A stretch of DNA of 60,496 bases from Hafnia phage Enc34: the sequence record NC_019524.2. One strand, written 5' to 3'. The notes below the pieces were generated by a model. The model had not been told where the DNA came from, searched no databases, and saw only the letters and a list, made by a program, of their open reading frames with translations. Made by a program: the position numbers and the translations under genes. The stretch's first letter is position 1. Each line of letters opens with the position of its first letter. Of this stretch, positions 44,364-57,204 are shown piece by piece.

Positions 44364-44646
44364 CATTTTTCGGCCCCACTGACCAGTTAACATCGAAAGA
44401 CCCCGGGTGGTAGTCCACACTTTCATAAATTGTGAAGCCTGCATCTTCTAGCCAAACGTGAATCTGGCGGCGGGTTTCATCCGATGGGACGTGGTTATCG
44501 ATCACAACGCTAACCATCGTGTTAGTCAGCCCGGCTTCTGCCGCACGCTGAATACGGTGTTCAATTGCATCGCGAACCTTCTCGGCTTCCGTCAAGTGGG
44601 ACTTCGCGGCGGTGATGTACATCTGGTGTGCTGTTATTGACATCAT
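44356..44646 (-). CDS. hypothetical protein
   Basis: GAGGTAGG RBS. It is the first gene downstream of the 44697-44725 promoter. Confidence 0.5.
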   Translation of the reverse strand: MMSITAHQMYITAAKSHLTEAEKVRDAIEHRIQRAAEAGLTNTMVSVVIDNHVPSDETRRQIHVWLEDAGFTIYESVDYHPGSFDVNWSVGPKNAR

Positions 44647-44671
44647 GGTGCCTACCTCGCTAAAAAGAAAA

Positions 44672-44695
44672 ACTCCCGTTGTTGCCTTCGGGAGT
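44672..44695 (-). terminator. hairpin (ACTCCCG/CGGGAGT) plus U-tract, terminator-like, placed immediately after a promoter
   Basis: On the minus strand the hairpin is followed by TTTTTCTTTTT. It directly abuts the -10 element at 44697-44702. Confidence 0.5.
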
Positions 44696-44696
44696 A

Positions 44697-44725
44697 ATAT
44701 TAGCTGTACACGTCGCGTGTGTCAA
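44697..44725 (-). promoter_or_regulatory. conserved-spacer sigma70-like promoter (leftward)
   Basis: Minus-strand TTGACA, then ACGCGACGTGTACAGC spacer context, then TAATAT. It is one of six promoters in this family. Confidence 0.55.
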
Positions 44726-44744
44726 ACGGTTTCTTACATCATGT

Positions 44745-44939
44745 TTAAAGATCCCATGGCAACGGTACCCAAGAATCGTTGATGTAAATGTAACACCCGG
44801 TTATGGGTGAGAATTTTGTTGGCAGGCTGGTTTGCTGACTCACGTCGTTACATCTGATAGTCGCACCAGCCCAAACAAGAACGTATAACAGACTAAATAT
44901 GATAATAATCAATATTATGAGAGCAGCAATCTTACGCAT
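44745..44939 (-). CDS. small membrane protein
   Basis: 64 aa with a highly hydrophobic N-terminus (IAALIILIIIIFSLLYVLVWA). Confidence 0.45.
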   Translation of the reverse strand: MRKIAALIILIIIIFSLLYVLVWAGATIRCNDVSQQTSLPTKFSPITGCYIYINDSWVPLPWDL

Positions 44940-44941
44940 TG

Positions 44942-45985
44942 TTATACCTCGTTATCTTCGTCGTGGCGTTTAAGCCAGATTAACATTCCGGCAGTATAAT
45001 TGATTGCGCCGTACAACTCCCTTTCCTGCTGTTCAACGGTCGGCATATTTAGCGCCTCGGTGACTTTCTTGACTACCTGATAGGCCATGCCGCTGACCGA
45101 ACCTACTTGGTCGCTGATCACCTGCATACGTTGGCTTTCAAATGGATCGTCATTCGCGTGGCGCTCGCGACCCTTGCCATACGCGGCTTGATGTAGCGCA
45201 CCGAAAAGCACATCGCATAGTGACTGGTAGTTTTTCAGGTCGCGCGGGCTTGCAAACTCATACGACACGACCGGGCCATCGGGTTGCGCCATCGACGCAT
45301 ATTCAGATAATTCCTTAATCTTATCTAGTATCTGGCCCGCCGTAGTAGTGCCGCGATCCATGGATAGATAGTCACAAATGTCTTCTCGTAGACCACTCTT
45401 AGATTTCGACCCCGGCCCGAACCCCGTCATACTCCAATCATGGTGGTTAGCGAACATGAGATAGTTCATGGCATCCACGTAATTCCCCGCCCGGATGTGC
45501 TCACGGATACTCTGTTTACAACGACCCTCCCAATTTTCTGCCATCCATGCCAGTGGTGGGCGACCGTGCTCCCCATTAGCCAACGCTTTCAGCATTTCCG
45601 CTGCAGTGACCAAGAATAGCGAGAGTGTTTCGGAGTGCAGATGCGGCGCATCTTTAAGTAATTCTCGGTGGAATTTATAACTGGTATAGCAATCGGATAC
45701 GATGCCGGGTAGTTGGTGGTCTGGAACACTTTCAAAGGAGTCTTGTGCTGCCTCCACCGCAGCCATCCCAAGGGCTGAACGGATTTGAGAAAGTGTAACC
45801 TTCTGTTCTAAAGACGTTTTGTACATCTTCCTGATGTGGTCACATGCCGCCTGTGGTGGGACAACGCCAGTAATGCCGAGGTCATGGCGCAATGCTTCAA
45901 ATGCGTTAATCACATCAAGTGTAGGTGTTGCAGAGACAAGGCCGTCAACTTCGCCCGCGACCTTGGTGTAGGATTTACTAGTCAT
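44942..45985 (-). CDS. hypothetical 347-aa protein ending DEDNEV
   Basis: ATG preceded by GGGAG. Acidic EV C-terminus. Confidence 0.5.
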   Translation of the reverse strand: MTSKSYTKVAGEVDGLVSATPTLDVINAFEALRHDLGITGVVPPQAACDHIRKMYKTSLEQKVTLSQIRSALGMAAVEAAQDSFESVPDHQLPGIVSDCYTSYKFHRELLKDAPHLHSETLSLFLVTAAEMLKALANGEHGRPPLAWMAENWEGRCKQSIREHIRAGNYVDAMNYLMFANHHDWSMTGFGPGSKSKSGLREDICDYLSMDRGTTTAGQILDKIKELSEYASMAQPDGPVVSYEFASPRDLKNYQSLCDVLFGALHQAAYGKGRERHANDDPFESQRMQVISDQVGSVSGMAYQVVKKVTEALNMPTVEQQERELYGAINYTAGMLIWLKRHDEDNEV

Positions 45986-45993
45986 AATAAAAA

Positions 45994-46023
45994 ACTCCCG
46001 TTGGTTTGATTACCTTCGGGAGT
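45994..46023 (-). terminator. hairpin (ACTCCCG/CGGGAGT) plus U-tract overlapping the 5' UTR/RBS of the 45985 gene
   Basis: Same stem sequence as the 44672 hairpin. On the minus strand it is followed by TTTTTTATT and then ATG. The 3' arm contains the GGGAG RBS. Confidence 0.5.
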
Positions 46024-46024
46024 T

Positions 46025-46053
46025 AGATTAGTTGCTTACGCGGCGTGTGTCAA
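46025..46053 (-). promoter_or_regulatory. conserved-spacer sigma70-like promoter (leftward)
   Basis: Minus-strand TTGACA-CACGCCGCGTAAGCAAC-TAATCT. Confidence 0.55.
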
Positions 46054-49698: not shown

Positions 49699-49729
49699 TT
49701 ATTATTCTCCTGTAGTGGCTCAGGTAGAA

Positions 49730-49758
49730 TCTTAGGTGTACACGTCACGTATGTCAAA
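49730..49758 (-). promoter_or_regulatory. conserved-spacer sigma70-like promoter (leftward)
   Basis: Minus-strand TTGACA-TACGTGACGTGTACACC-TAAGAT. Confidence 0.55.
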
Positions 49759-49772
49759 CGCTTTTATTCAGA

Positions 49773-49810
49773 TAAAAAGAAACCCGCCATAAAATTAATT
49801 AGGCGGGTTG
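49773..49810 (-). terminator. rho-independent terminator (leftward)
   Basis: On the minus strand, AACCCGCC/GGCGGGTT hairpin followed by TTTCTTTTTAT. Confidence 0.6.
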
Positions 49811-53136: not shown

Positions 53137-53165
53137 ACAATAGTGCTACATGCCGCGTATGTCAA
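53137..53165 (-). promoter_or_regulatory. conserved-spacer sigma70-like promoter (leftward)
   Basis: Minus-strand TTGACA-TACGCGGCATGTAGCAC-TATTGT. Confidence 0.55.
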
Positions 53166-53244
53166 ACTCTTTCAATTATACTCGGCTAACCTCACCAGAT
53201 TTCTTTTCCTTTATTGCCTACGCCAATCCAATCGGTATTTCGCG

Positions 53245-53440
53245 AACGACGACCTGTCAGGTTTTTCAAGTAAGCCGTGGGAAAACGACGACCTGTCAGG
53301 TTTTTGAAGTAAGCGAACGACGACCTGTCAGGTTTTTCAAGTAAGACCCGATGACCGAACCGACGACCTGCTAGGTTTTTCAAGTAAGCCGTGGGATCGG
53401 CGTTCAAAAATTTTCGACCTGCTAGGTTTTTCAAGTAAGC
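53245..53440. repeat. array of five direct repeats (iterons) of about 30 bp, CGACCTG(TC/CT)AGGTTTTT(C/G)AAGTAAGC
   Basis: Copies at about 53245, 53283, 53315, 53359 and 53411, separated by spacers of 0 to 21 bp. They lie in the 640-bp non-coding region between the divergent early promoters. Confidence 0.7.
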
Positions 53441-53752
53441 CGCGCGGGGGGTTTTTCGTTGGGGTCTGGCCTGAAATTTTTGTAGAGAGCGACGAAAATC
53501 ACGCTGAAACACGGGTTTGACGTGCTACAAGGCGAAAATCGTTATATTTCAACACTTTAAGCCACTATAGGCGGTACCAAATCGGGGTTCACTCGAAATT
53601 TTTATAGAGAATTCAATGGTTTAAGCGGGCGGCGATGACCAGGATCACGGGGCGGGATTTTGTAATGTCTTTATATATATCAACGCGTTACCCGATTTGC
53701 TTGTTTTGCGTATAGATGAAGGGGGGTTATGTTGCGGGCCTTGAAAATATGT

Positions 53753-53781
53753 TTGACATACGCGGCGTGTGTTTCTATTCT
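53753..53781 (+). promoter_or_regulatory. conserved-spacer sigma70-like promoter (rightward)
   Basis: TTGACA-TACGCGGCGTGTGTTTC-TATTCT, upstream of the 53830 operon. Confidence 0.55.
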
Positions 53782-57130: not shown

Positions 57131-57157
57131 AACGCCCCTTTAATGGGGCTTTTTGCG
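57131..57157 (+). terminator. rho-independent terminator
   Basis: AACGCCCC tttaat GGGGC followed by TTTTT. Confidence 0.6.
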
Positions 57158-57175
57158 TTATCCTGTAAAACATGT

Positions 57176-57204
57176 TTGACACACGCGGCATGTACTATTA
57201 CTCT
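57176..57204 (+). promoter_or_regulatory. conserved-spacer sigma70-like promoter (rightward)
   Basis: TTGACA-CACGCGGCATGTACTAT-TACTCT. Confidence 0.5.

Follow-up and report, generated by a model that had tools for sequence, protein, structure and literature searches.

Early promoters with overlapping terminator-like hairpins in Hafnia phage Enc34 and other Casjensviridae

The genome record of Hafnia phage Enc34 (NC_019524.2), a stretch of 60,496 nucleotides that was analysed over its whole length and is called the window below, carries two minus-strand modules in which a sigma-70-type promoter runs directly into a hairpin followed by a U-run. Judged by sequence comparison, the window is a complete genome of a Chi-like siphophage of the Casjensviridae. 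It is collinear with Salmonella phages Chi and YSD1 in the structural region, at ~75% nucleotide identity, and in the Chi-like comparison the early region is ~73% identical at the nucleotide level. The genes around the two modules all lie on the minus strand; they include a gene for a DNA methyltransferase and a downstream exonuclease gene, and the others are without an assigned function.

In module A (46053-45985), the -35 hexamer sits 10 nt past the TAG stop codon (46065-46063) of the methyltransferase gene, and a conserved GAAA block is found on its 5' side. The hairpin of this module encloses a loop of 16 nt (46016-46001) that contains an inner GGU/ACC helix. Directly 3' of its U-run is the ATG (45985-45983) of an open reading frame (ORF) of 347 amino acids. 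The Shine-Dalgarno (SD) sequence of this ORF, GGGAG (45999-45995), is located within the 3' arm of the stem, 9 nt 5' of the ATG, and no second SD was found for it in module A, which leaves the GGGAG of the 3' arm as the sole one. The U-run of module A would serve at once as the terminator tail and as the spacer between SD and AUG. In module B (44725-44646), the -35 hexamer begins 19 nt past the TAA stop codon (44747-44745) of a 64-amino-acid ORF and the loop is 10 nt long (AAGGCAACAA, 44688-44679). Module B has an SD of its own past the U-run (GAGG at 44658-44655, with a further AGG at 44653-44651), and the downstream ORF of 96 amino acids has its ATG at 44646.

The two modules share an identical promoter core of 18 nt (GAAACCGTTTGACACACG). 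Both promoters are near-consensus, with TTGACA-17-TAATAT in module B (10 of the 12 sigma-70 consensus positions) and TTGACA-17-TAATCT in module A, and both combine sigma-70 hexamers with a spacer in the 16-18 bp range. The 5' arm of the stem starts ~40 nt (module A) and ~50 nt (module B) past the stop codon of the upstream ORF, TAG and TAA respectively. A preliminary description, made from the sequence alone, had reported two leftward promoters that are followed, 1 nt past the -10, by an identical 7-bp stem with different loops and then a U-run; on rereading the sequence, both its coordinates and its description were found to be accurate. The positions of these elements, and of other junctions discussed below, are collected in Table 1.

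Table 1. Positions in the window of the elements of modules A and B and of other junctions that carry promoters of the same family
Feature	Position	Strand	Sequence, arrangement or basis
Module A, -35 hexamer	46048..46053	-	TTGACA; sequence reading
Module A, -10 hexamer	46025..46030	-	TAATCT, after 17-nt spacer 46047-46031; A at 46024 next
Module A, hairpin	45994..46023	-	5' arm ACTCCCG 46023-46017; 3' arm CGGGAGT 46000-45994
Module A, U-run	45986..45993	-	TTTTTATT; RNA tail UUUUUAUU directly after last pair
Module B, -35 hexamer	44720..44725	-	TTGACA; sequence reading
Module B, -10 hexamer	44697..44702	-	TAATAT, after 17-nt spacer 44719-44703; T at 44696 next
Module B, hairpin	44672..44695	-	5' arm ACTCCCG 44695-44689; 3' arm CGGGAGT 44678-44672
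Module B, U-run	44662..44671	-	TTTTCTTTTT; RNA tail UUUUCUUUUU directly after last pair
Serial junction	49729..49809	-	terminator AACCCGCC-loop-GGCGGGTT + TCTTTTT (49809-49773; stem-loop 49809-49781), then promoter TTGACA 49757 ... TAAGAT 49729
Serial junction	57134..57204	+	terminator GCCCC-TTTAAT-GGGGC-TTTTT (57134-57154), then family promoter starting at 57176
Divergent promoter pair	53137..53781	- and +	promoters at 53165 (-) and 53753 (+); family regular expression

The pattern ACTCCCG-N3-20-CGGGAGT has exactly two matches in the 60.5-kb window and none in 100 shuffles. The hairpin of module B folds with -11.3 kcal/mol (z -3.3) and that of module A with -15.9 kcal/mol (z -5.1), and in both cases none of 200 shuffles folded as well. 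RNAs that begin at the predicted +1 (GAAGG...) reach -4.4 and -2.8 kcal/mol, with z about +1, and are thus no better folded than shuffles, in keeping with the earlier proposal that locally initiated RNA would be unable to form the hairpin. Both modules display the features of intrinsic terminators, namely a stable G+C-rich hairpin, a U-tract at the 3' end of the stem and a same-strand gene end upstream, and in the folded modules the effective loop size is reduced by an inner GGU/ACC or G-C helix. A generic terminator scan missed both hairpins because its loop limit was 8 nt; in a relaxed genome-wide scan, both were among the few good hairpin-plus-U sites of the minus strand. A covariance-model search against Rfam assigned the modules to no family, the sole match being a chance microRNA at 18 bits versus a gathering score of 60. 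The possibility of a bidirectional terminator was rejected, as the plus-strand tail past the hairpin reads AATATTAG and convergent genes are absent.

Each module is probably a sigma-70 early promoter fused to an overlapping intrinsic terminator of the preceding same-strand unit. The preliminary description had proposed such an overlap, and those predictions of an overlap that can be tested in silico, concerning folding, covariation, a fixed register and genomic context, all held; the mechanism itself we infer. The reading builds on the anatomy of the modules, their folding energies, conservation and covariation, the fixed -10-to-stem register and the context, and from these it predicts where transcription would start, where it would terminate and how translation would be affected.

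Sigma-70 polymerase initiates 6-9 nt past the -10 hexamer, most often at 7-8 nt, with a purine preferred at the start and a pyrimidine before it. This distance rule, together with the preference for a pyrimidine at -1 and a purine at +1, places the predicted start site on the G/A of CCCGAAGG. Counted from the -10, the 5' arm covers nt 2-8 and the predicted +1 is nt 8-9, i.e., G46017 or A46016 in module A and G44689 or A44688 in module B, as placed by the consensus rule. The start site, which had earlier been predicted to lie inside the 5' arm, would thus coincide with the last base of that arm or with the first base of the loop.

On this basis, the promoter would occupy the stretch of ~40 nt that separates the terminator stem from the stop codon upstream; the 5' arm of the stem begins 0-1 nt past the -10. 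Polymerase arriving from upstream would transcribe both arms and the U-run, whereupon the hairpin would form and transcription would terminate; in any read-through RNA of module A, the SD GGGAG would be locked within the stem. Initiating locally, 7-9 nt past the -10 and hence at the last 5'-arm base or the first loop base, polymerase would make an RNA that holds no more than a single base of the 5' arm, so that no hairpin could form, the U-run would be passed and the SD would be free. Expression of the downstream genes would then depend on the local promoter alone, and the whole arrangement would be accommodated within ~75 bp.

The occurrence of the modules was analysed further in relatives, gathered from an annotated phage collection and by a scan with the promoter-core pattern, a search with the methyltransferase only having given four loci. 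The layout recurs in at least six genera of Casjensviridae. Modules are present at orthologous junctions in phage Chi, upstream of gp51 and gp46, and in Serratia phage Smarc5, and in both genomes compensatory changes are seen in the stems (ATCCCCG/CGGGGAT and ACCCCCG/CGGGGGT). Further carriers, likewise at orthologous junctions, are Providencia phage Stilesk, Salmonella phage SAP012, Klebsiella phages Soft and N137 and contigs of the IMG/VR database, together with a weaker copy with a poor T-run in Salmonella phage SLP-22. The two stems of SAP012 are GTCCCCGTAG/CTGCGGGGAT and ACCCCTGA/TCAGGGGT, and those of other genera include AACCCTGTAT/ATACGGGGTT, GCCTCTGA/TCAGAGGC and CCCCTTG/CGAGGGG. All modules in annotated relatives directly follow a same-strand stop codon.

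Stem pairs were counted with a script that took the -10 and the T-run as its anchors; a MAFFT alignment and a covariance model were set aside because distant stems fell out of register. Each of nine distinct 5' arms was fully paired with its own partner (7/7, or 6/6 for a six-base arm), versus a mean of 4.8/7 with the partners of other stems, and several types of base pair were encountered at six of the seven stem positions. A loose hairpin pattern, scanned against IMG/VR, produced only chance matches, which were discarded.

These stems bear directly on a different explanation, in which a dimeric phage or host protein would bind ACTCCCG/CGGGAGT as a DNA operator over the start site and repress the promoter. 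A perfect inverted repeat that spans the +1 and is identical at two promoters of the window would suit such a protein, but its half-sites would be separated by 10 nt in one case and 16 nt in the other, and by 4-17 nt in relatives. Moreover, two different stems occur in one and the same genome (ACTCCCG and ATCCCCG in Chi, GTCCCCGTAG and ACCCCTGA in SAP012), and the G-T wobble positions and constant T-run fit RNA pairing and not a single DNA-binding specificity. The operator was rejected on the variable spacing of the half-sites and on the different stems within single genomes, and is considered highly improbable.

The register between promoter and stem is constant among the modules. A hairpin and T-rich tail at a distance of up to 45 nt occur in 23 of 72 unique promoter-like sequences, and in all 23 the offset from the -10 to the stem is 0-1 nt, in support of a start site inside the 5' arm. 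Loop length varies among these hairpin-bearing promoters (4-17 nt), as does the distance to the start codon, so that insertions and deletions are evidently tolerated throughout the modules save between the -10 and the stem. A start site confined to the 5' arm would lead one to expect such a register, fixed in spite of the varying loops. A distance of 0-1 nt is the sole placement that would keep the 5' arm out of the local RNA while sparing the -10, which argues that the overlap itself is under selection; among the observations made here, we regard the fixed register as the strongest argument for such selection.

The same register decides against a promoter-proximal attenuator, or a target of antitermination of the Q or AlpA type, in which the local transcript would contain the whole hairpin and terminate unless polymerase were modified. 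Terminators right after promoters are common in other phages (PMC10914365), and the promoter spacer of the modules carries a conserved dyad-like element at the place where lambda Q-type factors bind. With a gap of only 0-1 nt from the -10 to the first paired base in 23/23 sequences, however, initiation 6-9 nt downstream is incompatible with a 5' arm in the RNA, and the same spacer element is found at promoters that lack a hairpin. There is very little likelihood that the modules work in this manner.

The position of the SD differs among the modules. The 3' arm is the only SD in module A of the window and in the A modules of Chi, Smarc5 and Stilesk, as well as in the Klebsiella modules and those of L126. 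In about half of the distinct modules, a separate SD is located past the U-run; these comprise module B of the window, the B modules of Chi, Smarc5 and Stilesk and both modules of SAP012. In the GenBank record of Klebsiella phage Soft, the orthologous hairpin is annotated as a terminator with an internal ribosome-binding site (RBS) and the promoter is unannotated; promoter annotation at the modules was absent from all GenBank records inspected.

This distribution is central to a purely translational explanation, in which the hairpin would act like that of phage T4 gene e and the U-run would cause little termination, being instead an AU-rich spacer between SD and AUG or an enhancer that binds ribosomal protein S1. 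There is a documented precedent in T4 (PMC3014915), and module A and its orthologues have no SD other than that of the 3' arm (GGGAG, GGGGG or GAGGGG), 6-9 nt 5' of the ATG. Hairpins of Escherichia phage E21 (L132 8977) and of a Providencia Kokobel1-like contig (L125 2605) likewise hold the SD and have no U-run, and similar cases were encountered in the contigs L177, L186 and L159, which are unrelated to the window, and in L196. In the six modules listed above with a separate SD, however, the SD is downstream of the U-run and beyond occlusion, yet both hairpin and U-run are kept. Since the separate SD follows the U-run, a hairpin of the module B type can only be a terminator; lacking a translational role, these hairpins and their U-runs are best read as such from their layout. 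A translational effect is also compatible with termination, and in module A both effects probably occur together. A solely translational role is thus unlikely. Modules with no SD besides the 3' arm would be doubly insulated, since little translation would be expected from whatever RNA reads through, and the proposal that the hairpin at 45994 may act as a translational switch gains support from the sole SD of module A and its orthologues.

In E21 (L132 8977) and the Kokobel1-like contig (L125 2605), which represent more distant genera, a short hairpin directly follows the -10, with the SD (AGGGGG and TAGGGGG, respectively) as its 3' arm. By their appearance, these hairpins represent the element in a form that, as in T4 gene e, is purely translational. 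At another promoter of E21 (L132 5289), an inverted repeat, GGGGGA...TCCCCC, extends across the promoter spacer and the -10. In a contig resembling Salmonella phage BP12C (L146), a tetraloop hairpin without a U-run, CCC-TTCG-GGG, is located ~6 nt past the -10 of family promoters at 2793 and 5782 of the minus strand, and perhaps stabilises the transcript at its 5' end.

The two promoters belong to a larger family. The regular expression GAAA-N3-4-TTTGACAyACGyGrCrTGTa-N-TAnnnT detected six such promoters in the window, which start at 53753(+), 57176(+), 53165(-), 49757(-), 46053(-) and 44725(-), and only the last two carry the hairpin. Orthologues of family promoters were identified in Chi, Smarc5, Stilesk, SAP012, Soft, N137 and SLP-22. 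The promoters adjoin gene blocks on the matching strand and are kept across genera despite diverged flanks. All six window promoters share the spacer TTGACAyACGyGrCrTGTa, which includes a partial dyad (ACACG-N3-CGTGT), and a GAAA block a few nt 5' of the -35, and this combination is also kept across Casjensviridae genera. The spacer motif may serve as the operator of a phage regulator, as the place where a Q-like factor is loaded, or as an UP-like element.

The family provides a measure of whether the promoters are genuine, for the hairpins might be ordinary terminators beside inactive or incidental matches to TTGACA-17-TAnnnT, with no functional overlap. The promoters are predicted from consensus only, and the C-rich discriminator predicts short-lived open complexes, both of which favour that explanation. 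Against it, six copies per genome have an invariant TTGACA, a 17-nt spacer, the common spacer motif and the upstream GAAA block, and they stand on the correct strand before gene blocks and persist across genera while the flanks diverge. Promoter-like sites were, moreover, rarer in the scan than in shuffles (4 versus 12.3), which argues that the promoters present are not background. Incidental promoter matches are therefore a rather improbable explanation.

Wherever a family promoter of the window has same-strand genes upstream of it, a terminator-like element accompanies it, placed in series with the promoter or overlapping it. In the two serial junctions (Table 1) the terminator precedes the promoter. 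No terminator hairpin was found at the divergent promoters 53165(-) and 53753(+). The 590-bp region between these two early promoters contains five direct repeats of ~29-36 nt (CGACGACCTGyyAGGTTTTTCAAGTAAGC) at 53247-53447, spaced 32-51 nt. From their arrangement, the repeats look like replication-origin iterons or a regulator-binding array.

Several observations weigh against the combined terminator-promoter that we favour. The loops of the window modules, at 10 and 16 nt, are longer than the 3-8 nt typical of E. coli terminators, and this could cut the efficiency of termination; the point is tempered by the shorter, canonical loops of 4-7 nt in relatives from other genera. The stems were located with a hairpin finder, so that their self-complementarity is in part a product of the method, although that finder played no part in the anchoring to the -10 and the T-run. 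Same-strand family promoters that stand right after a gene end with neither kind of terminator exist in Soft (L127 10074) and N137 (L129 9478); the early units of the family are therefore not insulated from one another in every case. Finally, no transcriptome or mapping of 5' or 3' ends for Casjensviridae phages was found in the searchable literature.

Comparable structures were sought outside the family in IMG/VR with the pattern TTGACA-17-TATAAT-NNYCCCG, a biased scan that proves the existence of unrelated examples and gives no frequency. In six contigs (L172, L177, L186, L159, L188 and L196), a consensus TTGACA-17-TATAAT is directly abutted by a structure. On the minus strand of L172 (IMGVR_UViG_3300025133_000306), at ~6038, the sequence TATAAT-ACCCCCGT...ACGGGGGT-UUUUACUUUUU makes up a full terminator-like hairpin with a U-run, and in the other five the structure is an anti-SD/SD hairpin, e.g., CTCCC-CGAA-GGGAGG. 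A tblastn search with the window proteins gave no matches in L172, L177, L186 or L159. As L172 is unrelated to the window and yet has the same design, a start inside the hairpin may, as far as such sequences indicate, be more widespread than the Chi-like phages.

A more far-reaching version of this idea is that the module is a selected reset element: polymerase released ~35 bp past a strong promoter would be recaptured there and would reinitiate, and the start-inside-hairpin logic may be widespread and so far unrecognised in phage genomes, as represented by L172, L177 and L186. Polymerase is known to diffuse along DNA after termination and to reinitiate (PMC11347151). We hold this version to be speculative and rather doubtful; if true, read-through would be turned into new transcripts whose 5' end is unstructured and competent for translation.

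The modules, read as promoters with an overlapping terminator, resemble several known systems in part. In phage T4, which offers the closest precedent, transcripts of genes e, soc, 49 and I-TevI can form an inhibitory RNA hairpin, and the DNA encoding its 5' strand also holds a late promoter (McPheeters et al. 1986; reviewed in PMC3014915). As is proposed for the modules, transcripts from that promoter miss this strand, whereas longer RNAs begun upstream contain it and fold into the hairpin, and in module A the SD is likewise located in the 3' strand. Sequestration of the SD in the T4 manner is absent from module B, and half of the modules, unlike the T4 gene e type, leave the SD uninvolved. 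The T4 hairpin is purely translational and has no U-run, whereas the modules have one and look like intrinsic terminators. The embedded promoter of T4 belongs, in addition, to a different temporal class (gp55 late), while in the modules the upstream and embedded promoters are of the same sigma-70 family.

A second parallel is the overlap of the E. coli frd terminator with the ampC attenuator, reportedly described by Grundstrom and Jaurin in 1982. There, too, the promoter of the downstream unit precedes the terminator of the previous same-strand operon, and one hairpin is shared by two units. The start of ampC, however, is upstream of the whole hairpin and the outcome is attenuation, whereas in the modules the start would be inside the hairpin and the local RNA should escape. 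The serial terminator-then-promoter junctions in the same genome employ the same components for the same presumed purpose; in the modules, by contrast, the promoter comes before the hairpin and overlaps it in a 0-1 nt register, ~40 bp are saved, and an incoming polymerase would cross the promoter before terminating. In E. coli, read-through that depends on the transcription start site has been observed, in that terminator efficiency varies with the origin of the transcript (Yan et al. 2018, PMC6131387). That effect is an empirical correlation without a defined mechanism, while in the modules the proposed exclusion of the 5' arm would be all-or-none by design.

No prior description of an overlapping terminator-promoter architecture was found in the literature searched, the Chi genome paper included. 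The modules would thus combine known ideas and ordinary parts into an apparently undescribed arrangement, an intrinsic terminator invisible to an embedded promoter that belongs to the same sigma-70 class. A clean and testable rule for start-site-dependent termination follows from the fixed register of 0-1 nt. Standard annotation of terminators and promoters misses such sites or annotates half of them. If confirmed, the compact insulator would be a useful part for synthetic biology. For the phages themselves, confirmation would establish a natural, family-wide element of ~75 bp that joins terminator, promoter and, in module A, RBS, with a terminator blind to its own promoter, and it would explain how the early region of Chi-like phages is split into independently driven units at no intergenic cost.

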